A stretch of 64,000 bases of DNA from a virus: the IMG/VR virus record IMGVR_UViG_3300017991_000049, positions 1-64,000 of that record, one strand, 5' to 3'. The number at the start of each line of letters is the position of its first letter. Position 1 is the stretch's first letter. The position numbers and the translations under genes were made by a program. Below, one piece after another: positions 6,953 through 49,271 of the stretch. The notes below the pieces were generated by a model. The model ran no database searches. It had not been told where the DNA came from and worked only from the letters and a program-made list of their open reading frames with translations.

Positions 6953-7569
6953 ATTAGCCAATCGTTTTCATCCTGCATACGCTGGATTTTCTTGGTCTGC
7001 TTGATATGCCAGTTGTAGTGGCACATATAGCGATTCTCGCTCAGCTGACTGTTCAGCTGGTACCACCCAGACGGGTACATCAGCGGGTCCAGCATGACCA
7101 TGTCCACGACATCAGGCTCTTTCCGCAACCTGTGCTGGATACGCATCTGATCGTCGCAGTATTGGCGGCGCCGGCGGTACTTAGGCAGGTTCGCAGGGTC
7201 CAGCAGGTCCAGCGTCGCTGGCGTCGGTGCCGCGGCGAAGAATCCTGCGCACACCTTGTTGTCGCCGTCCGGACAGTCACGTTGGAAGACGATGTCGTGG
7301 CCTTCAAGCGTGCGCTCCAAATCCTTACGCGGATCACGGCGGAAAACGACGTCGACGTCGGTCCAGATGACGACCTCGCCTTTCAGAAGCTCCTTGCGTA
7401 CGAGCCTGACCTTCTGCATCATCATCTGTTCGAACAGCTCGGTACCGTACGGCTCGCCGTGCACCTGCATATCGTGGATCTCGATGCCAACGCCGATGCG
7501 CTTCAACGACGCGAGCATGTTTTGCACCAGCGGACCCACTCTTTCGGTGCACATCGAAATCAATTTCAT
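6949..7569 (-). CDS. nucleotide-diphospho-sugar (GT-A fold) glycosyltransferase
   Basis: Start set to MKLISM because upstream codons overlap tRNA-Arg. Motifs VVIWTDVDVVF (DxD) and DIVFQRDCPDG. About 206 aa. Confidence 0.45.
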   Translation of the reverse strand: MKLISMCTERVGPLVQNMLASLKRIGVGIEIHDMQVHGEPYGTELFEQMMMQKVRLVRKELLKGEVVIWTDVDVVFRRDPRKDLERTLEGHDIVFQRDCPDGDNKVCAGFFAAAPTPATLDLLDPANLPKYRRRRQYCDDQMRIQHRLRKEPDVVDMVMLDPLMYPSGWYQLNSQLSENRYMCHYNWHIKQTKKIQRMQDENDWLI

Positions 7570-7577
7570 AGGTGAAG

Positions 7578-7649
7578 TACCCTCGGTAGGATTCGAACCC
7601 ACGTGGAACGGTGTAGAAAACCGTGGCCTATCCTCTAGGCTACGAGGGC
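7578..7649 (-). tRNA. tRNA-Arg (TCT)
   Basis: Acceptor GCCCUCG/CGAGGGU. Anticodon stem ACGGU/ACCGU, loop UUUCUAC. T-arm GUGGGUUCGAAUCCUAC. Confidence 0.7.
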
Positions 7650-7658
7650 ATTATATCA

Positions 7659-7731
7659 GTCACCCCACCAGGAGTCGAACCTGGGCCTGCGGCTTCGGAG
7701 GCCGCCGTCTTGTCCTCTCGACTATGGGGTG
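7659..7731 (-). tRNA. tRNA-Arg (CCG)
   Basis: Acceptor CACCCCA/UGGGGUG. Anticodon stem GCGGC/GCCGC, loop CUCCGAA. T-arm CCAGGUUCGACUCCUGG. Confidence 0.7.
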
Positions 7732-7859
7732 TGAACGCGACGGCCCGGACCTCTATTTCAGTACGGCCTGGGATCATTGCGGGTGTCTAAGGTTACGCCG
7801 TCGAGTGCGTGACGAAACGACGACTCCCACTCCAGTACGTCACGATACTCCGCCGCGAG

Positions 7860-7932
7860 CAGCCCCGGCAGGATTCGAACCTGCATTAACCTGGCTTAGG
7901 ACACCAGTGCCTTTCCGTTAGGCGGCGGGACT
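7860..7932 (-). tRNA. tRNA-Arg (CCT), tentative
   Basis: Acceptor AGUCCCG/CGGGGCU. Anticodon loop GUCCUAA (G32 atypical). T-arm GCAGGUUCGAAUCCUGC. Confidence 0.55.
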
Positions 7933-7939
7933 GAGGCCG

Positions 7940-8668
7940 TTAGGCCAACGCTTCTGAAACTTCAAGGCGCTTGCCCTTGAAATTGGGTTCGTTCCAGACC
8001 TCCAGGTAGAGATCCATCCACTCGCCGCTCTTCGACGTCGGTATGCGCCATATCAGGAACGGATCGTGTGTGCGCGACAGTTCGCAGATATGGAACGTGC
8101 CGAAATGACACCGCTTCGAGATGTCTACTGCGGACTGCAATGCGAACTCGGGCACAGGGCGCTCGTAGCCCTTGAGTGGCACAATGCCCCAGTCTGGCGC
8201 ACCAATATTCATCGCGATGAATGCAATGACGAACGACACACACGTCGGCAGCCACGCCCAGCACCATGTCGCCCAGACATACGTGGGTATAACACCCCCG
8301 CCGAGGAACATACAGAGAGACACGATGCCAGCGAACAACGTGGCCAATGACCCGCACACGAACACCGCGCACGTGACCCTGTCGAGCAGCCAGAATGCGC
8401 CACCCCAGCCGTAGGCCGACAGCGCCAGCGTCTTGATCTTGTACCGGTTGACGGACTTCGGATCGAACGGCCGGATGTCCAACTCTTCCAGCACAGCGAT
8501 TGCTTCGCATTTGCGCTGATGTTCCACACCCAACGCGCCTGCTTTGTCGCGCAGCGGCTTGTAACCAAGTCGCACATGCGCTTCCTCTCCAAGCGACGGC
8601 GAAACGTCGCACTCTTGCGGCCGGATAACGGTCTCTGGCGGCACACGCACCAATGTAGTGCTACTCAC
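7940..8668 (-). CDS. integral membrane protein (4-5 predicted TM helices)
   Basis: 242 aa. Hydrophobic core AFWLLDRVTCAVFVCGSLATLFAGIVSLCMFLGGGVIPTYVWATWCWAWLPTCVSFVIAFIAMNIG. Confidence 0.45.
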   Translation of the reverse strand: MSSTTLVRVPPETVIRPQECDVSPSLGEEAHVRLGYKPLRDKAGALGVEHQRKCEAIAVLEELDIRPFDPKSVNRYKIKTLALSAYGWGGAFWLLDRVTCAVFVCGSLATLFAGIVSLCMFLGGGVIPTYVWATWCWAWLPTCVSFVIAFIAMNIGAPDWGIVPLKGYERPVPEFALQSAVDISKRCHFGTFHICELSRTHDPFLIWRIPTSKSGEWMDLYLEVWNEPNFKGKRLEVSEALA

Positions 8669-8702
8669 TGCAGACTCCTTCCTTTAGAACAAGTGACCAA
8701 GT

Positions 8703-8775
8703 ACGGGTGCAGGGAATCGAACCCTAGACTTCTGGTTGGAAGCCAGATGTGTTGCCACTAGCACCACACCCGCAT
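8703..8775 (-). tRNA. tRNA-Gly (TCC)
   Basis: Acceptor GGGUGUG/UGCACCC. Anticodon stem UCUGG/CCAGA, loop CUUCCAA. T-arm CUAGGGUUCGAUUCCCUG. Confidence 0.7.
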
Positions 8776-8941
8776 AAGAGGAGCAAGAACTACTGACCCT
8801 AAGCTACTGACCGGGGGCGACCCGGTCGCACTCTCAGGGCAACACGAGTATATCTCTCCGGAGCCATCCGGAGCCTTCACGCACTACTTCGTCCTCAACC
8901 GCACGCGAATGCGGTACCCGCTGGCAAACGGGGCTCCTCAG

Positions 8942-9014
8942 TACGGCGCCGGAGGGTCGAACTCCAACCTCGACGTTGGCAACGTCGCGTGCACAGCCGG
9001 TACACTAGCGCCGC
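8942..9014 (-). tRNA. tRNA-Gly (GCC)
   Basis: Acceptor GCGGCGC/GCGCCGU. Anticodon stem CGACG/CGUCG, loop UUGCCAA. T-arm UGGAGUUCGACCCUCCG. Confidence 0.7.
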
Positions 9015-9154
9015 AAAAAGCAGAACGGGCTACTCACGCCGCGGCCCAGCTGGAAGCTACCCAGCCGGGGTGCGCGGATGTAGGGCTCCGGACAGATGTA
9101 TCACGGTACCCATCAACACCGCCGGGCAACCCAGCTTCCCCGCTCTGCTGTACG

Positions 9155-11431: not shown

Positions 11432-11631
11432 TAGTCTTCATCCCAGTTGTCACTGGGTAGCACGAATCCATGTTCTGTGTTGTCGTCGAATACCAGCTTG
11501 ATGCATGGCTCTTCGCCGAAAGCGCCTTCTACCTCCGTTTTGTAGATGGCTACGATGGTCTTGCCCACCACGTCTTCTAGGGCGCATTCGCCGCTAGGTT
11601 CGCCCGGCAACTGCCCTGCGATCAGCTTCAT
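11431..11631 (-). CDS. hypothetical small protein
   Basis: Start chosen at MKLIAGQ. Acidic C-terminus. Confidence 0.4.
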   Translation of the reverse strand: MKLIAGQLPGEPSGECALEDVVGKTIVAIYKTEVEGAFGEEPCIKLVFDDNTEHGFVLPSDNWDED

Positions 11632-11890
11632 CCTTCGGTTCCTTCGGTAATGAGTCTCCGGTGTTTTCACGGTGCGTGCGCACCGCCTTCTGTATGTCCG
11701 GTATCTTGCCGGACGTCTCGCCCACGAACGTCACGACCCAGCCATCTGACCAACGGCCGTAATCGTCCTGCAGTTTGACAACGCCGCCCAGCTTGGCGAA
11801 CTTCTTCGGTATGAAGGAGACGATCTTGGCGCGCTTGTCGTCACGCCATTGCTCTAACACACACTGGCGATAGTCAGTCTTCTTACTCAT
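11594..11890 (-). CDS. hypothetical protein (99 aa)
   Basis: Start at MSKKTDY; the upstream part of the ORF overlaps tRNA-Val. Confidence 0.45.
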   Translation of the reverse strand: MSKKTDYRQCVLEQWRDDKRAKIVSFIPKKFAKLGGVVKLQDDYGRWSDGWVVTFVGETSGKIPDIQKAVRTHRENTGDSLPKEPKDEADRRAVAGRT

Positions 11891-11905
11891 GGCTTCCTTT
11901 CGAGT

Positions 11906-11978
11906 AGGCCCAGTTGGATTTGAACCAACGTCCACCGCGGTGTAAACACGGCACTCTGGCCGGGCTGAGTTATGGGCC
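11906..11978 (-). tRNA. tRNA-Val (TAC)
   Basis: Acceptor GGCCCAU/CUGGGCC. Anticodon stem CCGUG/CGCGG, loop UUUACAC. T-arm GUUGGUUCAAAUCCAAC. Confidence 0.7.
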
Positions 11979-12161
11979 TTTGTAGTAAAACGAGGGCAAA
12001 GGTGGTGCCAACGGCGGGACAGCTTGAACGCCGTACTGCGCTCCTGCCACATATCGACCAACCACGGCGTCCAGCGCAGGCTCCGACGAGTACGCATCCG
12101 AGCAGCGTTAATGCACCGTAACTAGCTTTCTTATCCTCCCACCTTCACCGTCGTGGGCGCA

Positions 12162-12323
12162 TTAGCCCTTAGGCTTATCATTCGTTGCGTCGATGTACGG
12201 GCCATTGCCCACGGCGAATTCGCCGCACTTATGGCAACATAGCGTCAACGCAGCGTCGCTAATCCGTATCAGTTCTCGGCGGGCGCGATCGCCACACCAC
12301 GTACACGCATCCATGTTCTTCAT
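12162..12323 (-). CDS. small Zn-ribbon protein (MKNMDACTWCGD...CCHKCGEF)
   Basis: 53 aa. Two CxxC pairs. RBS AAAGGA upstream. Confidence 0.45.
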   Translation of the reverse strand: MKNMDACTWCGDRARRELIRISDAALTLCCHKCGEFAVGNGPYIDATNDKPKG

Positions 12324-12352
12324 CGCGTATTCCTTTCGTTGGGAGAAGTGAG

Positions 12353-12424
12353 CAGGTCCTAGAGGAGTCGAACCTCTTCTTGCGGTTTCGTAGACCGCCG
12401 TGCATCCAGCACACCCAGGACCTA
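12353..12424 (-). tRNA. tRNA-Arg (ACG)
   Basis: Acceptor GGUCCUG/UAGGACC. Anticodon stem GCGGU/ACCGC, loop CUACGAA. T-arm AGAGGUUCGACUCCUCU. Confidence 0.7.
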
Positions 12425-12487
12425 GCCCAGTAGGGAATGGTACGGCCCCTACTGGCACAGCGCCGAAGCGCCACGGTGCTGCCACCG

Positions 12488-12643
12488 TTAAGTTCGCTTT
12501 TCGTTTGGACAGCCGCGCTCGTGGCACGGCTTGCCGTTGATGACCATTGCGTTGCATTTGGAGCATTTGACGTCACAGTAACCCTCTCCGCGCGGCTTAG
12601 ACGATAAGTCGAAACCAAGGCGTTTCAGTTCTTGCGTAGTCAT
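12488..12643 (-). CDS. 51-aa Zn-ribbon protein (MTTQELKRLGFDLSSKPRGEGYCDVKCSKCNAMVINGKPCHERGCPNEKRT)
   Basis: Not in the ORF track (<60 aa). GGAG RBS 8 nt upstream of ATG. C-x3-C-x2-C...C-x4-C pattern. Followed by two hairpins. Confidence 0.5.
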   Translation of the reverse strand: MTTQELKRLGFDLSSKPRGEGYCDVKCSKCNAMVINGKPCHERGCPNEKRT

Positions 12644-12660
12644 TATAGTCTCCTTTCAGA

Positions 12661-12729
12661 CGCGCCGTTGGGATTCGAACCCACTTTGACGGTTTTGCAG
12701 ACCGCCGCCCGGCCACCGGAAGCGGCGCG
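12661..12729 (-). tRNA. tRNA-Cys (GCA)
   Basis: Acceptor GCGCCGC/GCGGCGC 6 bp. Anticodon stem GCGGU/ACCGU, loop CUGCAAA. T-arm GUGGGUUCGAAUCCCAA. Confidence 0.65.
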
Positions 12730-12908
12730 TATGTTAATCCGGCAGGTACACCTTACGGTAAGCACGCTGTCCTAACCAGGCAGCTCCTTCTACCCATTCC
12801 TGTGCTTCTTCAACCGTCTTGACTGATTCACCCGTCGGCTTCGGTGACGAGAACATAGTGCCGTCGCCGTCCTCCATCAGCACATAGATGTAGTACATGT
12901 CTCCTCCT

Positions 12909-13397
12909 TTATGCTATCCGTCCCGCCAGCCAGTTGGAAGGTGGCCGCCAGTTGTTGTAGTCGCGGTAATGCACGACGGTGTAGAACAGGCCGCTGGCCG
13001 CCACGTCGTCTGGTTTCAGCCACCGCGGGTCAGCGCCACGCGCGCGCTTGTACGCCTTGCGCACAACGCTTACACAGTTCTCGCCACGGCGTTCGCGCCG
13101 CAGGAACCGAAAGATCGAGGCGATCTTACGGTACTTGGTGCCTACAAGGCTGCGCGCATGTTGCGCTGCTCGGTAACCTAGCTGCGCATCTGGATTACGC
13201 AACAGCAGAAATTCTGGATACCGCGCTATGAAATCTGCAAGGTGTACGGCGATCACCGCATTGGGCTTGGCCTGCGCCTCGATGACGTACGTCCCGGCGG
13301 ATATGGCGGCGTGGTTCCAGTATCCAGGACTATCGTTGCCCACTGCGTCGGTGTTCCGGGTGAGGAACACGTCGCCAGCTCGACTAATGTGTGACAT
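12909..13397 (-). CDS. hypothetical protein, possibly a permuted papain-fold (His...Cys order) hydrolase
   Basis: Start at MSHISRAG because upstream codons overlap tRNA-Phe. His in GYWNHAAIS precedes Cys in ENCVSVVRKAY. Weak resemblance only. Confidence 0.3.
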   Translation of the reverse strand: MSHISRAGDVFLTRNTDAVGNDSPGYWNHAAISAGTYVIEAQAKPNAVIAVHLADFIARYPEFLLLRNPDAQLGYRAAQHARSLVGTKYRKIASIFRFLRRERRGENCVSVVRKAYKRARGADPRWLKPDDVAASGLFYTVVHYRDYNNWRPPSNWLAGRIA

Positions 13398-13417
13398 AGC
13401 TTCTCCTTCGTTGTCAG

Positions 13418-13489
13418 CGGACTGGGTGGTGCTCGAACCCACGTCTCGTGCTCTTCAGGCACGCGCTATACCGTCTCAGCTACCAGTCC
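13418..13489 (-). tRNA. tRNA-Phe (GAA)
   Basis: Acceptor GGACUGG/CCAGUCC. Anticodon stem CGUGC/GCACG, loop CUGAAGA. T-loop UUCGAGC. Confidence 0.75.
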
Positions 13490-13520
13490 ATGTTCCCGAA
13501 ATTGCTTTCGGGGACATCAT

Positions 13521-14168
13521 CTAAACCTCATGTACGCCTATGTTTACGGCCAGCGACTCGTCTTTTGCCGCCGCCGCCAGAATGTCCTGGAAGCGTACCA
13601 TCTCCTCGGGCGCCATTGTGACATGGGCGGCGACGCGGCCGTTCACGAAGAGCATGCCGGATGTGAAATAGTCGCCTTTGGCTACGTGCAGTATCTGGAA
13701 TGTCATGCGAAGGCGTTCCACCGGAGCGTTCTTGCAACCTAGGAGGAGCAGGACCTCGTTCCGGACATCTTTCAACCTGAGTCCTAGGTTCAGCAATACC
13801 TGCGACGCAGTGCCTTCGCCTTCCCGAAGCAGTCCCAGCAAGATGTGCTCGGTGCCGACGTGGTTGTGGTTGAGCAGCCGCGCCTCGTCCATAGCGAACT
13901 CTATGACCTTCTTGGCCCGGGGCGTCTGCGGCAGCTTGCCCATGGTCACCATATCGGGACCGCTCTGGACCAGCTTCTCCACCTCGAGGCGGATCTTCCG
14001 CACGTCGTAGCCTAGATTCTGCAGCGCGTTGGACGCGACCCCGCTGCCCTCCTTAATCAGTCCCATCAACACATGCTCGGTGCCGACGTACTCGTGGTTG
14101 AACCGCTGGGCCTCTTGGTTGGCCAGCTGAAACACCCGTCGTGCTCGATCCGTGAACTTCTCGTACAT
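13521..14168 (-). CDS. standalone double Clp N-terminal domain protein (ClpA/B/C N-domain repeats, no ATPase)
   Basis: 215 aa. Two repeats [37 protein letters not shown] and [35 protein letters not shown] match the Clp_N repeat signature. Confidence 0.75.
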   Translation of the reverse strand: [215 protein letters not shown]

Positions 14169-14395
14169 ACATACTCCTTCCGTGTGCGACCGCCAGGCTG
14201 GCTAAACCCAGCGGTCGCCTGATATTGGTTGACTTGTCAAAGATCATTGTTGCTGCGGAGTTCGTGTGCCATCACCTTGCTGGCGCTTACGATCCGCAGT
14301 TCGGCCAACACCGTACTCGCCGGCGCTGACCGAACGTTTGTTCCGCTGCAGACGTCGCCTGCGGCGTTCGAGTTTCTTCTGCTTCTTATTCATAG

Positions 14396-14470
14396 TGGCC
14401 CAGGTGAGATTCGAACTCACAGCATCTCGACGTTTGAAATCGAGTGGTCTGCCGGTTGCCTACCGGGCCA
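14396..14470 (-). tRNA. type I tRNA with anticodon CAA (Leu codon UUG), unusual D-arm
   Basis: Acceptor GGCCCGG/CUGGGCC, A73. Anticodon stem UCGAU/GUCGA, loop UUCAAAC. D region UAGGCAACCGGCAGACCAC. No long variable arm. Confidence 0.55.
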
Positions 14471-30822: not shown

Positions 30823-31485
30823 TTAGACGGGCGTCTCGGTGATCCGGTTGGGCGCATTTTCTGGCCCGCGCGGTTCCATCGAGGCTTCGATCTGCGCCAC
30901 GTCGACGCGGTTGTCGTTGCCTGCGAAGGTCATCAGGTACGCGAGGATCTGTTGGTACAGACCGTAAACGCGCAGCGAGTCGTGTCGGGTGATGAACCGC
31001 GAACGCTCGCGCGAGTTGAGTCGCGTCCAGGTTACGATCACTGTGTCGACGGCCGACAACAGGATCCGGCCGTTGCCGCTCATGTTGAGCTGGCTGTTCA
31101 CCGGGATGTCGACGTCCTGGCCCGAGAAGTCCCAAGGGAGTTGGTACATCTGCGTGGCCGGCATCTGGATGTCGTCGCCACCAAACGGATTGGCAGCATC
31201 GGTGATGTCCGCAGTTGCGTCGATCGCCGTAGCGATCTTGTCGCCGAGATCAGCACCGTCTGGGTTATGAGTAACCCGGCGACGCCAGCGATCAGCGTTG
31301 ACAAGCAGCTGCAGAAAATGGTCTCTCGACGGGTCGTCGAGACCGCCTCGGTCGCGGAGATCTTCACTGTGGACAATCTCCGAGCGCAGCAACATCAACG
31401 GCTGCAGACCGGCGGCGATGTGATGGTTTCGGCATTCCGTGATTACGTTACGGAATTGTTCGACGCCAGGGTCACCTACTGGCAT
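30823..31485 (-). CDS. hypothetical protein (220 aa)
   Basis: Overlaps the stop of the upstream protease gene by 10 nt (operon-like). No motif recognised. Confidence 0.5.
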   Translation of the reverse strand: MPVGDPGVEQFRNVITECRNHHIAAGLQPLMLLRSEIVHSEDLRDRGGLDDPSRDHFLQLLVNADRWRRRVTHNPDGADLGDKIATAIDATADITDAANPFGGDDIQMPATQMYQLPWDFSGQDVDIPVNSQLNMSGNGRILLSAVDTVIVTWTRLNSRERSRFITRHDSLRVYGLYQQILAYLMTFAGNDNRVDVAQIEASMEPRGPENAPNRITETPV

Positions 31486-33245
31486 GACTGGTCTCCTTTG
31501 GTGGGAGTTGAATGATAGGTTGCTGCCGGCGCCATTTCATTGAAGCGTCTCAGCAGCGTGTCCTTCATTATACGCGCCCAGTCATTCTCAGGTCCAGAGG
31601 GCTCTTGGTCAATTTTCTTGTCAAGTTCGTCGAGAGTAAGTCGGCCGATAAGTGCATCAAGTATCGGCGAACGTCCTTCGAGCTCCGAAAGTCGTATAAA
31701 TTCCTGTGCTTCCGAGATGTCTCGGGGCACTGTGTCGTGGGTGGGAAACGTATCGGGCTCGGAAGCCCCTCCTTGCCCAGGCGGCGTCACGGGCGGGTCA
31801 ACAGGCGGTACGACAGGCGGATCTGTGGGCGGTTCGATGGGCGTAACAGGCGGCAAATCAGGCAGTTTTGGCGCAGGCTTGCCGCGGAACCAGCAGAACG
31901 CCTTGTAGATACCAAAGCCGAGCGCCAGCAATCCGCCACCACCTGCCGATCCTGTCAGTAGCCACATGAGCGCCTGCTGCACCGACGGCTTTACCATATC
32001 CCAGTTTGACGGTTCGTCCGGCTCGGTTACCGTGGGCGGCGGATCGTTATTTGTCGGCGGCTCTACAGGCGGCGTAACCGGAGGGTCAACTGGCGGCGTA
32101 ACCGGAGGGTCAACTGGCGGCGTAACTGGGGGTTGCACAGGTGGTTCGACCGGCGGCTGTACAGGTGGCGTAACCGGAGGCGTAACTGGCGGTTCAACAG
32201 GAGGTTCAACAGGCGGTTCAACCGGTGGCACCACTGGCGGCACTACAGGCGGTGGCTCAGCTGGCGGCGCAACTGGTGGCGTCACTGGTGGCACTACAGG
32301 CGGTGGCTCGACCGGCGGTGTCACCGGAGGCGTGACAGGCGGCTGTACAGGTGGCGTAACCGGAGGCTCGACCGGGGGCGTAACCGGAGGCGTGACAGGT
32401 GGCGTAACTGGGGGCACGACAGGCGGCTGTACAGGCGGCTGTATTGGCACCAGTGGCGGCCGCGGCTTTGGCGGCTGCGGGTACGGCGGGAGAATGAACT
32501 TCAACAGCGCACGCACACGCGGAAAGTAAGGTCCGCAGCAGCAGTTACCGTCAGTGCCGGTGATCAACCCTACGACTTCACCGCGCGACGTGTAGATCGG
32601 TCCGCCGCTCATGCCGCTGATTGCCGGCCCTCGGAACTCGATGACCGAGAGCGTGCGCCCTTGATCGAACGATAGCCATTTGCTGAACGTCCCCTTTGTG
32701 ACGCGGTATGTAGTATTCATCGCCCAGCCGGACGCCCAATATATCTCGCCTTGCCTGGGCGGGCCTTTTGCGAAGCGCACCGGCTTGATACCCGGATCGT
32801 CGATCTCGACGACGGCTACATCATAGAGATGGTTGTAGCGCAGCATTCGTGCCTTGAGCATCTTGCCGTTGATCAGCGTGACCGTCACAACGGCCCCAGG
32901 CTTGTAGCCATGGGCGCAGGTGATCACGTGCGCTTTACCGTCCTTCTGTGCTGCAATAAAGCCGCTGCCGGCCAGTTCGCCGAATGCTACCTTGACCACC
33001 TGTTCGCAGGGTGGTGCTGCTGGAAGTGCTGGCGGCGCTGGTGCGGCCCAGGACTGCGATGGCGATGCGCGCCATTGGGTTTCGTGCGGCAGCTGCATCA
33101 GCAGCCCGCGGTAATCCTGCCGGCTAGGCGAATTGCGCTCTTCCCAGGGAACTACTTCATAGATGTCTACAGAACGGGGCTGGCCCGCAGCTACGGTTGG
33201 CAGCAGTAGGCATGCCAACAGGCAGAAAAGCGTACAGCATCTCAT
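31476..33245 (-). CDS. secreted trypsin-like (S1) serine protease with Pro/Thr-rich repeat linker, TM helix and C-terminal domain
   Basis: Start at MRCCTLFCLLACLLLPTVAAG (signal peptide); the upstream part of the ORF overlaps tRNA-Ile. Catalytic triad context VITCAHG (His), YDVAVVEID (Asp), GMSGGPIY (Ser). About 130 residues of (PPV[TEQ]) repeats. TM LMWLLTGSAGGGGLLALGFGIYKAFCWF. Confidence 0.7.
   Translation of the reverse strand: MRCCTLFCLLACLLLPTVAAGQPRSVDIYEVVPWEERNSPSRQDYRGLLMQLPHETQWRASPSQSWAAPAPPALPAAPPCEQVVKVAFGELAGSGFIAAQKDGKAHVITCAHGYKPGAVVTVTLINGKMLKARMLRYNHLYDVAVVEIDDPGIKPVRFAKGPPRQGEIYWASGWAMNTTYRVTKGTFSKWLSFDQGRTLSVIEFRGPAISGMSGGPIYTSRGEVVGLITGTDGNCCCGPYFPRVRALLKFILPPYPQPPKPRPPLVPIQPPVQPPVVPPVTPPVTPPVTPPVEPPVTPPVQPPVTPPVTPPVEPPPVVPPVTPPVAPPAEPPPVVPPVVPPVEPPVEPPVEPPVTPPVTPPVQPPVEPPVQPPVTPPVDPPVTPPVDPPVTPPVEPPTNNDPPPTVTEPDEPSNWDMVKPSVQQALMWLLTGSAGGGGLLALGFGIYKAFCWFRGKPAPKLPDLPPVTPIEPPTDPPVVPPVDPPVTPPGQGGASEPDTFPTHDTVPRDISEAQEFIRLSELEGRSPILDALIGRLTLDELDKKIDQEPSGPENDWARIMKDTLLRRFNEMAPAATYHSTPTKGDQSCQ
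31990..32470. repeat. degenerate 12-nt tandem DNA repeats (GGCGGTGTAACC-like) encoding the (PPVT/PPVE)n linker
   Basis: Seen directly inside the protease CDS. The Gly-rich ORFs on the opposite strand are artefacts of this repeat. Confidence 0.8.
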
Positions 33246-33324
33246 CGGGGACTCCTTTGCTGAGAGACGTGCATATTCTCTCATCAGACACCGACGGAGT
33301 GGCGCTGTCAAGATCCTTGGGAAG

Positions 33325-33396
33325 TGGTAGCCCTGTGAGTCGAACACAGCACAGCGCGGTTATCAGCCGTGCTTGGGCAACCGGCCCTCGACTACC
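33325..33396 (-). tRNA. tRNA-Ile (GAT)
   Basis: Acceptor GGUAGUC/GGCUACC. Anticodon loop CUGAUAA with a 4/5 stem. T-arm CUGUGUUCGACUCACAG. Confidence 0.65.
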
Positions 33397-41251: not shown

Positions 41252-42190
41252 TTACTGAGTCGCGGGCGCGTGTCGAATGGTTTCGATCGACTCCCGCATC
41301 ATAGCGGTGTTCATCGTGGCCTGGTTGATCGCCTCGTAAGGCATAATGAAGACCACGTTGTTCTCGCCCTTGGCCATTTCGGTGGAGACGTTTTCCATCA
41401 CCTCCATCTGGCGCCACGATAAGTACGATGGCGTCAGCGACTTGGCCAAGATACCGTTTTCGTCCGCCTGGGCTTGCGCCCGGATCATACGGACTTTTGC
41501 CAATTCCGTTTCTATTCCGGCCCGCCGTTGTGCTTCCGCCATTTCGGCCTCAGCCAGGGCTGCCTTCCGTTGATCTTCCAGCTCGGCATTCTTGATAGCG
41601 TTCCGTTGCTGGATAACGACCGGCGGATAGTCGATGTTGGAGACCAACACCGCCGATACGTTCAGCGGGTACTTCAGCGCGGTCAGTCGTTTGCGTACGT
41701 CCGCCGATAGATCCGCCTCGATCTTCAATCTGTTAGGCCGGATGTCATCGGTTTCGTACGTGCTAACGATATTGCGCGTTGACGATCGAATGATGTCCCG
41801 AACGGTCATCTCGTAGAACTTGTCCAGAGACAGCTCGTGTCCGGCTACCTCAGAGCCGTCTGCTGTCTTAATCGCCGGAACTTTCTCCTTGATGAACTCG
41901 ATCGAATCTTTGTCGACCTGGAACGACAGCACGGCCTTCGTGTCGACGTCCATGTTGATATCGTCCGTACAGAGAATCTTCAGCGTCTCCTTGTACGACT
42001 TCAACTTCTGGTCAACGAAGTACAGCCGATCGCGGCCGTAGGCCTTGTACACGCCCTCGCTGACGATGGTGCTCTCACCGCTTGGGTGGAGGATGATCAC
42101 CTTCTTTCCAGGAGGCACGACGCTTCCCATGCACCCGGTCAGTGTCATCACGAAACACGCCAACAAGCTAATCAGAATCAACCTCTTCAT
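41252..42190 (-). CDS. SPFH/band-7 (stomatin/prohibitin-like) lipoprotein
   Basis: Lipobox LTGC after the signal peptide MKRLILISLLACFVMTLTGC. Central SPFH-like region and Ala/Glu-rich coiled coil (AALAEAEMAEAQRRAGIETELAKVRMIRAQAQADENG). Confidence 0.65.
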   Translation of the reverse strand: MKRLILISLLACFVMTLTGCMGSVVPPGKKVIILHPSGESTIVSEGVYKAYGRDRLYFVDQKLKSYKETLKILCTDDINMDVDTKAVLSFQVDKDSIEFIKEKVPAIKTADGSEVAGHELSLDKFYEMTVRDIIRSSTRNIVSTYETDDIRPNRLKIEADLSADVRKRLTALKYPLNVSAVLVSNIDYPPVVIQQRNAIKNAELEDQRKAALAEAEMAEAQRRAGIETELAKVRMIRAQAQADENGILAKSLTPSYLSWRQMEVMENVSTEMAKGENNVVFIMPYEAINQATMNTAMMRESIETIRHAPATQ

Positions 42191-47564: not shown

Positions 47565-49271
47565 CTAGTTAAGTTCGGGTTGCGCGGCGGCTGCGGCTCT
47601 TGTTGTCGAGACCTTGCGGCTGGCGCGCGAACGTGTGGTGTCCTGCACTTTCTCGCCGTTTACCGGCTCCGTCTTATCTTGGCAGAACTTGCGGATCGCT
47701 GCAATGTCCTCAGCGTTGAGCCGGGCAACCGGGGTGATACCCTTGGCGGCTACCAACAGCTCGTCGATGGTCGGACGTACGGCATCAGCGTCTGGCATCT
47801 TGCCTTTCTTGCTGCCACCTGCTTCCCAGGTCGTCATCCGGTCGTCGTAGGCATTGCTACGCGCGGCGATGATGATTTCCTCCAGTTCGGCGCCAGTGAA
47901 CTCGTCGGTCTTGTTGACCACGCGGCTCAGCGTCTTTTGATAGACGGCTGGATCGATCCCGCGCTTGTTCAGATGAATCTGCAGGATCTCCAGGCGCTCG
48001 TCCTTATCCGGCAGATCGGTGGACCAAACGCAGTCGAAGCGGCCGGCGCGCAGAAGCTCACCAGGTACGCCCGTCGTGCGGTTCATCGTCACCATGACGA
48101 ATACACGGTTGTCGGAGTCGACGCCCATGTCCCGCTCGGATAGCCAGTTCAGGAAGTAGCTCAGCACGCGCGAGGCCACACCGCTGTCTGCGGCCTGATT
48201 CTCATGCGCACCACCGAACGCCTTGTCGATCTCGTCGACCATGAGCAAGGCGTTGGGCATGGCGGCTACCATCTGGAGCGCTGTCCTGATCTTGGCCTCG
48301 GAACCGCCGACGTACTTGTCGAACATAGATCCGATGTCCATAAGCACCAGGTCCAGCCCCATCAGCTTGGCTGCTGCCTTGGCTACGAGCGTCTTGCCGG
48401 TACCAGGCGGACCGATTAGCACCGAGCCGCGAGGCTTCTCCATGTTGAGCGATTCGGCGTGCCTGGTGTAGGCACGACTACGACAGCGCAGCCACTCCAA
48501 GAAGTTCTTGAAGCCGCCGATGACGCCCTTGCCGGGGATCGAGGCGTTGGGGATGTAGGTCAGCCCCTCCACCTTGCGGATGACCTTCGCCTTCTCTGCG
48601 GCGATGATATCCATGATCTCGTCGGTGATGCCGCCGCAGGTCGCGATGGCGTAGGCAAAGATACGCTGCGCTTCTTCGGCAGTACAGCCGAGCAGCGAAC
48701 GTGTGATCTTCTCTTCCATGTCCTCGTCGCACGCAGCGCCCTTCGACCCCTTGTTGCCCTTCTGGACAGAGTCGAGGATGAAGTCCACCACGTCGGCCTT
48801 CATCTCGTCGTAGCGCGGCAGCTGGAAGTCGATGACGTCACAATACTCCGAGATATCGGGGTGCGGCGTCGGCGTAGTTGCGATGATCACGATCGGGCGC
48901 GTGGTCTTGTCGTTGCTCAGCGCGTTGGAGATACAAAGCTCGGCCAACGTGCGCCGTAGCGCCAGATTACTCGGGCCACCGCCATTGAGATACGATCCAA
49001 GATCCTTCATTAAGACTAGGCCATGGCTGGCGATCTTGTCCCTGACGGACATCAGTGCCTTAACGGGGTCAGTAAGCTTGGCATCCCAGCTGGCGCCTGC
49101 AACGCAGTTCCAACTGTACCAGCGCAGATCGGTATCGCTCTGTTCGGTGTAAGCGTGGGCGATGCTCTTGAGCGTGCGTTCGGCACGGCCCTCATCGCCG
49201 GACAAGTACACCCAGATCACGCTGGACCCGGAGTCGATCTTGTCCATAAACGATTGTGTAAAGCTAGGCAT
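47565..49271 (-). CDS. AAA+ ATPase (classic AAA clade) with about 280-aa N-terminal domain
   Basis: Walker A GPPGTGKT, Walker B LLMVDEIDKA, sensor/arginine-finger region RAGRFD. Confidence 0.8.
   Translation of the reverse strand: MPSFTQSFMDKIDSGSSVIWVYLSGDEGRAERTLKSIAHAYTEQSDTDLRWYSWNCVAGASWDAKLTDPVKALMSVRDKIASHGLVLMKDLGSYLNGGGPSNLALRRTLAELCISNALSNDKTTRPIVIIATTPTPHPDISEYCDVIDFQLPRYDEMKADVVDFILDSVQKGNKGSKGAACDEDMEEKITRSLLGCTAEEAQRIFAYAIATCGGITDEIMDIIAAEKAKVIRKVEGLTYIPNASIPGKGVIGGFKNFLEWLRCRSRAYTRHAESLNMEKPRGSVLIGPPGTGKTLVAKAAAKLMGLDLVLMDIGSMFDKYVGGSEAKIRTALQMVAAMPNALLMVDEIDKAFGGAHENQAADSGVASRVLSYFLNWLSERDMGVDSDNRVFVMVTMNRTTGVPGELLRAGRFDCVWSTDLPDKDERLEILQIHLNKRGIDPAVYQKTLSRVVNKTDEFTGAELEEIIIAARSNAYDDRMTTWEAGGSKKGKMPDADAVRPTIDELLVAAKGITPVARLNAEDIAAIRKFCQDKTEPVNGEKVQDTTRSRASRKVSTTRAAAAAQPELN

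Follow-up and report, generated by a model that had tools for sequence, protein, structure and literature searches.

We analyzed a 64,000-nucleotide stretch of viral DNA (IMG/VR record IMGVR_UViG_3300017991_000049, positions 1 to 64,000 of that record; below, "the window" means this whole stretch) and found on its minus strand, at positions 13521 to 14168, a gene for a ClpC-type N-terminal domain (N-domain) that is free of any ATPase motor and fused to a small orphan C-terminal domain. The product, hereafter the window protein, may well be a host-derived mimic of the ClpC N-domain that competes for N-domain ligands. We favor this interpretation tentatively, and weigh it below against others.

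A ClpC-type N-domain without its motor

The initial annotation of the window had placed an open reading frame (ORF) of 215 amino acids (aa) at 13521 to 14168 and had described it as two Clp_N repeats without an AAA+ module. This extent was exactly right, and to it we add the minus strand, which had been left out. According to the ORF list and its translation, the coding sequence is complete (215 codons plus stop), with the ATG at 14166 to 14168 and the TAG at 13521 to 13523. The ATG at 14168 is the earliest available start, with no other start codon between it and the in-frame stop upstream. Inspection of the sequence revealed a strong Shine-Dalgarno sequence, GGAAGGAG (14174 to 14181, minus strand), 5 nucleotides (nt) upstream of the ATG. 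An identical protein (P0001) was called on six contigs, and the contig shown is 226.5 kb long.

A profile search with the Pfam Clp_N hidden Markov model (HMM) confirmed the domain assignment: PF02861 matched with E=1.7e-30 and 105 bits, against a cut-off of 20.7. Lack of such a match, which the initial annotation had named as its refutation, was thus not observed. The double repeat is present as described, but it does not account for the whole protein, one third of which (aa 146 to 215) is a separate C-terminal domain. The N-domain comprises aa 1 to 145 (13734 to 14168, minus strand), as delimited by two Pfam Clp_N stretches and by PDB alignments. Repeat 1 (aa 16 to 67; 13968 to 14123, minus strand) is the best Pfam stretch and carries the first GTEH motif and residue E31. 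Repeat 2, the limits of which are approximate (about aa 91 to 143; 13740 to 13898, minus strand), is the second Pfam stretch and carries the second GTEH motif and E107, while T82, R84 and K86 lie just upstream of it. The internal duplication was also seen in tblastn-type alignment, where residues 6 to 63 of ClpC additionally aligned to repeat 2 (window positions 13752 to 13925) with 52% identity.

In a PDB search, aa 1 to 146 could be aligned over their whole length with N-domains of known structure from ClpC1 and ClpC, at E~1e-46. The ranking was clear, with values of 1e-46 to 1e-37 for ClpC1/ClpC, 1e-7 for ClpB and 2e-3 for ClpA. Furthermore, the start residue is shared with ClpC (MYEKF in the window protein versus MYERF in ClpC; the N terminus of planctomycete ClpC is MYERFTDRARKV). 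By these comparisons the N-domain is specifically ClpC-type, as opposed to the ClpA, ClpB or ClpV type.

The lack of an AAA+ module was confirmed as well: Pfam and NCBIfam matched only the N-domain part of ClpA, ClpB, ClpC and ClpK models, and the NCBIfam matches (N-terminal parts of ClpK, ClpA, ClpB, ClpG and ClpV models only) were far under the full-length cut-offs. No remnants of D1, the M-domain or D2 were found in the window, and the ORF had no match to UVR (PF02151). When a full planctomycete ClpC of 925 aa was used as the tblastn query, residues 1 to 127 alone matched at the locus; elsewhere there was generic P-loop resemblance, and a decayed clpC was therefore rejected. The Clp_N match, the absent AAA+ module and the phage window together bear out the earlier idea of a phage-encoded free Clp N-domain.

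The best relatives with a single N-domain were the N termini of true ClpC proteins labelled Pirellulales/Planctomycetota, with 84% identity. In a common alignment, the N-domain of the window protein was 82.5 to 83.9% identical to six true ClpC N-domains, 54 to 80% to bacterial standalone paralogues, 55 to 79% to other viral copies and 55% to M. tuberculosis ClpC1. The window protein shows Y2 and Q81, the state of planctomycete ClpC, and not the mycobacterial F2/F80. Compared with clpC of a planctomycete chromosome (locus L008), the N-domain had 75.5% nucleotide identity, a proportion of synonymous differences (pS) of 0.65, which is near saturation, and a ratio of nonsynonymous to synonymous change (dN/dS) of ~0.08. 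Such a low ratio despite near-saturated synonymous sites indicates that the N-domain has been maintained by selection, and we read it, from these sequence data, as an old capture under strong purifying selection. Because the N-domain resembles planctomycete ClpC, the host of the phage is probably a member of Planctomycetota. The third-position guanine-plus-cytosine (GC) content was 0.82 in the N-domain part, 0.71 in the C-terminal tail and 0.73 in the long genes of the phage; the high value of the N-domain may be a residual trace of its host origin.

The ClpC N-domain has a hydrophobic groove, residue K85 and two phospho-arginine (pArg) pockets, to which E32 and E106 belong; T7 and R9 are located in pArg1 or close to it. 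Of these residues, T7, R9, E32, K85 and E106 are determinants of the pArg pockets or of resting-state anchoring (PMC12583610). The same sites keep ClpC in an inactive resting state via contacts with the M-domain and AAA1, and the adaptors MecA and MdfA, pArg-substrates and cyclic-peptide antibiotics exert their effects when they occupy these sites (PMC12583610). The references of the residue alignment were an approximate B. subtilis ClpC sequence and the M. tuberculosis sequence from the PDB match. Residues T6, R8, E31, T82, R84, K86 and E107 of the window protein correspond to T7, R9, E32, T81, R83, K85 and E106 of ClpC; all are present. E31 matches E32 of the pArg2 pocket and E107 matches E106 of the pArg1 pocket of B. 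subtilis/S. aureus ClpC, while T81 and R83 are presumably the second-repeat equivalents. The pArg-pocket and anchor residues were kept in 43 to 58 of 61 non-redundant viral proteins that have the N-domain but no motor, as against a mean column conservation of 0.61.

The C-terminal domain and its counterparts in other phages

The remaining part of the window protein is an orphan domain of 70 aa (aa 146 to 215; 13524 to 13733, minus strand), for which AlphaFold2 predicts a beta-beta-beta-alpha-beta order and which is supported by codon usage. The codon-usage score of aa 144 to 215 was 0.385, compared with an in-frame mean of 0.363 (standard deviation, 0.176), and all off-frame windows scored below 0.385. 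The profile of GC by codon position was also typical of in-frame genes of the phage. When the tail (72 aa from aa 144) was modelled from its single sequence, AlphaFold2 returned a mean predicted local distance difference test (pLDDT) score of 79.4 and a predicted template modeling (pTM) score of 0.61, with strands at tail positions 10 to 19, 26 to 32 and 35 to 42, a helix at 44 to 57 and a last strand at 63 to 69. The predicted fold is not a coiled coil. The single-sequence model of the whole protein was poor (pLDDT 40). Given the in-frame codon profile and the confidently predicted fold, we conclude that the tail is a genuine, lineage-specific small alpha/beta domain.

Relatives of the tail were sought widely. 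An exhaustive phmmer search of 1.84 billion representatives gave no credible homologue, and two repeat/low-complexity proteins at E~1e-3 were rejected as spurious. Scans with tail peptides found no relatives in JGI metagenome contigs or IMG/VR, neither tblastn nor blastp detected any in the window, in any locus or in any retrieved protein, and comparison of the predicted fold yielded no specific match. A word-indexed search was also empty, but it missed the window protein itself and is hence uninformative. Among 71 other viral tails there was no credible homologue. A likeness by eye to the tail of the protein from the 595-kb phage LR756511.1 was rejected by shuffle statistics (z=-0.9), and a likeness to the tail of protein P0111 (z=3.8; phmmer E=0.069; 7 identities over 39 positions) fails multiple testing.

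The N-domain recurs in viral DNA. A first IMG/VR scan, with the window protein as the query, returned four loci, each with a single N-domain and a short tail. A second scan, with an N-domain alignment, confirmed 108 viral N-domain stretches, and we determined the architecture of the best 80 of these, with lengths counted from the match. In 52 of the 80, the protein had 181 to 260 aa, i.e., an N-domain plus a short tail; 15 had 261 to 420 aa, with a larger C-terminal part; 12 exceeded 420 aa, 10 of them being full ClpC with two Walker A motifs; and in one case the contig end cuts the ORF. Phage LR756511.1 encodes a 208-aa version, and P0111, of 225 aa, lies on a phage-like contig.

The tails are highly diverse. 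We compared 72 motor-less proteins (69 from the best 80 loci, plus L007, P0111 and the window protein) by BLASTP at E<1e-3, and their tails fell into 52 clusters, 39 of which were singletons, the window tail included. Some C-terminal parts belong to known families: Pfam confirmed fusions to HD_4 (L026), MazG (L031) and DUF2158 (L024), and by tail clustering only, HD_4 was assigned to L038, L060, L067 and L069, MazG to L045 and DUF2158 to L076. In the literature, we found no description of phage-encoded ClpC N-domains or of their variable tails.

Two further groups of viral proteins were noted. L025 and L044 encode proteins of 501 aa with a large C-terminal part that has no family match. Full-length ClpC (818 to 839 aa, two Walker A motifs) was present at L011, L071 to L074, L085, L086 and L088 to L090; these contigs are classed as viral, some measure 160 to 480 kb, and their ClpC genes are either phage-encoded unfoldases or host DNA.

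Among proteins already known, the ClpC/ClpC1 N-domains (PDB 3WDB-3WDE, 6CN8, 2Y1R and 5HBN) belong to the same fold family with the full double-repeat domain, and the window protein shares their pArg-pocket glutamates, T/R residues and K85-type lysine. In ClpC, however, a linker, AAA+ D1, the M-domain, D2 and the ClpP-binding part follow, whereas the window protein has an unrelated 70-aa domain instead. Without the defining AAA+ modules it is not a ClpC. The best functional analogy is ClpC2 (actinobacterial, Rv2667 family; PDB 8AD9 and 9P2P), which is motor-less like the window protein. Its ClpC1-N-domain-like module binds pArg, cyclomarin and rufomycin, for which it can serve as a sponge (PMC10030653, PMC13345244). 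ClpC2 differs in being bacterial, in keeping one pArg site only and in carrying this module C-terminal to a dimerization/DNA-binding part; in the window protein the order is reversed, with the N-domain starting at residue 1, and we saw no sign of a DNA-binding domain. ClpC2 is also described as a repressor of its own promoter, and it is more distant (E=2.6e-16 and 3.4e-11, versus 1e-46 for ClpC1). With its reversed domain order and distant sequence, the window protein does not appear to be a ClpC2.

A known phage counterpart is PHROG 35667 (Mycobacterium phages Myrna gp251 and Phabba; 235 aa), a phage-encoded single ClpC1-type N-domain with a tail of ~80 aa. Its HMM matched the window protein with E=6e-43, but over profile positions 11 to 155 of 235 only, and the tail of Myrna gp251 is unrelated to that of the window protein (z=0.2). 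Moreover, PHROG 35667 derives from actinobacterial ClpC1, while the N-domain described here derives from planctomycete ClpC. The window protein thus appears to belong with these phage Clp_N proteins through its N-domain only. The chloroplast proteins ClpT1 and ClpT2 (PDB 4Y0B and 4Y0C) are free double Clp-N proteins working with the Clp protease, but they are distant (E~1e-9 to 1e-8). ClpT binds the ClpP core and aids its assembly. Nothing in the window protein points to ClpP binding, and it would not be counted as a ClpT.

Motor-less N-domains are also found in the probable host phylum. On the planctomycete chromosome L008/L009, two such proteins are encoded ~2.5 kb upstream of clpC (L008 positions 11505 to 14282): a 194-aa ClpC-type N-domain protein that ends in a hydrophobic, probably membrane-spanning helix (7384 to 7968) and, adjoining it, a 349-aa tandem double N-domain protein (8001 to 9050). 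Tandem double-N-domain proteins (300 to 377 aa, four Clp_N repeats, some with UVR) also dominated the top database matches. Motor-less N-domain paralogues are thus native to the probable host phylum, too. The planctomycete standalone proteins are motor-less ClpC-type N-domains that are tandem, membrane-anchored or UVR-bearing. They differ from the window protein in lacking its tail, and the N-domain of the window protein is nearer to that of true ClpC.

Possible modes of action

Our tentative interpretation, that the window protein imitates the host ClpC N-domain and competes for its ligands, is based on the origin of the domain from ClpC of the probable host, the purifying selection, the intact binding sites and the sponge precedent of ClpC2. 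According to this proposal, the phage lineage would have captured the N-domain long ago from a Pirellulales-like clpC without keeping the ATPase motor. Expressed during infection, the free N-domain would display the two pArg pockets, the hydrophobic groove and the K85-type anchoring lysine, and would compete with the N-domains of the host ClpC hexamer for adaptors and for tagged or unfolded substrates. ClpC-ClpP proteolysis could thereby be damped or redirected; for example, phage proteins might be spared, or a stress or takeover-sensitive degradation pathway might be blocked. The 70-aa tail would be a lineage-specific add-on, probably providing a second contact (self-association or a phage or host partner) or stabilizing the free domain. 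That phages target the interface between the ClpC N-domain and adaptors is supported by Gp53 of phage SPO1, which interferes with this interface and binds ClpC like an adaptor (PMC6873191). Gp53 thus takes the part of an adaptor, whereas the window protein copies the domain of ClpC on which adaptors dock, and no sequence relationship between the two is expected.

The initial annotation had suggested a decoy or adaptor acting on host Clp unfoldases. In view of the 82 to 84% identity to the ClpC N-domain of the probable host, the purifying selection and the intact ligand and anchoring residues, this is still the most economical reading, but the hypervariable C-terminal parts of the viral proteins leave room for others.

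Several points weigh against competition for ligands. Compared with the consensus of 13 ClpC N-domains, the window protein has 24 differences, 17 of them at positions invariant in ClpC. Most of these are conservative (R/K, I/V, L/M, A/S and E/D), but M13F, which lies in the groove, is among the less conservative ones, as are K50Q, D53G, Y103H, E133K and E137N. With 17 changes at invariant positions, including M13F in the groove, the ligand specificity may have shifted from that of ClpC. Furthermore, neither adaptors of ClpC nor an arginine kinase have been established in Planctomycetota: no McsB gene adjoins clpC in L008, and a literature search on McsB in Planctomycetes returned nothing useful. 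Competition for ligands, its consequence for proteolysis and the function of the tail are inferred. Finally, a protein that is a decoy and nothing else could do without a C-terminal domain, but such a domain is present in almost all of the viral copies. Since tails are nearly universal and some are enzymes (HD_4 and MazG), the N-domain may be a docking or sensor module and not a passive sponge.

The last point leads to the main rival explanation, which is possible although we consider it rather unlikely: the N-domain, which stays constant, would serve as a handle or sense a ligand, and the C-terminal domain, which varies, would do the work. The N-domain could place the tail near ClpC partners or pArg-marked proteins, or a ligand could switch the activity or oligomeric state of the tail, as in ClpC2, where the N-domain-like module is a pArg/antibiotic sensor that governs another function (PMC13345244). 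The distribution of the 72 viral tails over 52 unrelated clusters, the presence of HD_4, MazG and DUF2158 at the C termini of L026, L031 and L024, respectively, and the prediction that the window tail is a real, confidently folding domain are consistent with this. However, neither a function nor a fold class nor relatives could be identified for the window tail, the domain order is opposite to that of ClpC2, and the pattern would look no different if two separate host-takeover functions had been fused.

In a broader form of this idea, which we also regard with some doubt, phages of ClpC-bearing hosts (Planctomycetota, Actinomycetota and others) would share a large undescribed toolkit, in which a stolen ClpC N-domain serves universally as a handle or as a sensor of stress and is joined to more than 50 unrelated C-terminal modules. 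The N-domain would sense, e.g., pArg-marked proteins or ClpC adaptors, and the modules would range from orphan domains of 60 to 90 aa to HD_4 and MazG nucleotide hydrolases. The window protein would then be no passive sponge but a single cassette of a polymorphic system by which ClpC-dependent proteostasis of the host is either reprogrammed or listened in on.

Regulation of ClpC assembly in trans appears improbable. Here, the free N-domain would dock on the M-domain/AAA1 sites of ClpC, locking it off or prising it into unchecked activity. The equivalents of T7, R9 and K85 are indeed conserved, and in ClpC these residues mediate the contacts of the N-domain with the M-domain and with AAA1, and mutation of these residues activates ClpC (PMC12583610). 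Planctomycete ClpC also carries the UVR/M-domain. But these contacts are intramolecular or between neighboring subunits and are probably weak in trans, and the study in question reports no in-trans experiment (PMC12583610). In addition, the same residues serve ligand binding, and their conservation does not discriminate between the two roles.

According to the initial annotation, the window protein might alternatively partner with the AAA+ ATPase of the phage, which is encoded at 47565 to 49271 (minus strand; 568 aa). This did not find support, and we consider it very unlikely that the window protein is a detachable N-domain for this ATPase. Although the N-terminal 270 aa of the ATPase have no assigned function, it is a classical PF00004 AAA protein with AAA_lid_3, covered over its full length by phrog_8638, and not a member of the Clp/Hsp100 group; its match to ClpC is a generic one (32% over 110 aa) in the P-loop region only. 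The two genes are separated by 33 kb, and the 8-kb flanks of the other Clp_N loci contained no such ATPase. Moreover, the phages with annotated Clp_N proteins are Myrna and Phabba, whereas the relatives of the ATPase were mostly in Vibrio, Pseudomonas, Rhizobium and ~70-kb cluster-O-type mycobacteriophages; homologues in Corndog-like mycobacteriophages and in an Agrobacterium phage are annotated just as AAA-ATPase. The ATPase also matched PADLOC IetA models (E=5e-15), probably via the generic AAA core.

That the gene is a functionless remnant of a captured and decayed clpC is hardly credible: it does represent a piece of a longer gene of the host, but its dN/dS is ~0.08 despite saturated synonymous change, its start and ribosome-binding site are intact, it is cleanly fused to a folded domain with phage-typical codon usage, no AAA remnant is adjacent, and the protein is found unchanged on six contigs, with its architecture recurring in dozens of viral contigs.

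Genomic setting and biological meaning

The window belongs to the genome of a very large phage. It contains a large terminase gene at 472 to 2367 (phrog_675, E=4e-57), has a GC content of ~58% and harbors 39 tRNA genes (31 confirmed by Rfam) between 3162 and 34479, all on the minus strand and with small ORFs between them. These tRNA genes cover 19 amino acids; none for tRNA-Tyr was found in the window. The gene of the window protein lies inside this tRNA-rich region, with tRNA-Leu(CAA) upstream (14395 to 14469) and tRNA-Phe (13417 to 13489) beginning 31 nt past the stop codon. No sigma-70-like promoter was detected near the gene and no terminator beyond chance, suggesting that it is likely cotranscribed with the tRNA array. 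The ORF directly downstream of the gene and tRNA-Phe (12909 to 13442, minus strand) had a weak match to Peptidase_C92 (permuted papain-like YaeF/YiiX family) with E=9e-6, just below the cut-off, and at the other phage Clp_N loci that we inspected this neighbor did not recur.

PADLOC defense-system models did not match the window protein at E<=0.01. A ClpP gene was found neither in the window nor in the retrieved loci with an approximate E. coli ClpP query, a weak negative, since the window represents only 64 kb out of the 226 kb or more of the phage.

Other genes of the window include an ORF of 845 aa resembling the major vault protein (MVP) (19617 to 22154, minus strand; MVP_shoulder, E=7e-23; Vault_3, E=4e-9) and a Ro60 orthologue (54288 to 56030, minus strand; TROVE, E=1e-39; vWA_Ro60, E=3e-52), i.e., two components typical of eukaryotic-type ribonucleoproteins. 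An Rfam scan at the gathering threshold detected no Y RNA or vault RNA, the tRNAs being the sole matches. Accessory genes, all on the minus strand, encode an SPFH/Band 7 protein (41252 to 42190), a trypsin-like peptidase of 623 aa (31476 to 33347), a GT9+GT2 double glycosyltransferase (57517 to 59526) and a NodZ-like fucosyltransferase (23499 to 24575). Nucleotide-sugar genes lie farther along the phage contig.

The ClpC-ClpP protease is central to stress responses and regulation, and in mycobacteria and Gram-positive bacteria it is a target for drugs. Its control point is the ClpC N-domain, of which adaptors, phospho-arginine tags and antibiotics make use. Clp-N proteins that stand alone were already known, ClpC2, ClpT and PHROG 35667 being examples, and the N-domain of the window protein is ordinary in sequence. 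Many phages, however, have independently kept a motor-less ClpC N-domain with its binding sites intact, which suggests that phages in conflict with their hosts have repeatedly targeted the docking interface of ClpC, an idea for which SPO1 Gp53 is so far the one experimental case. Myrna gp251 makes this idea testable in M. smegmatis and could yield natural protein inhibitors or modulators of ClpC1, and further partners of the Clp system might be discovered through the hypervariable tails. While the result for the single gene is a prediction, the pattern at the level of the family is the more interesting result.

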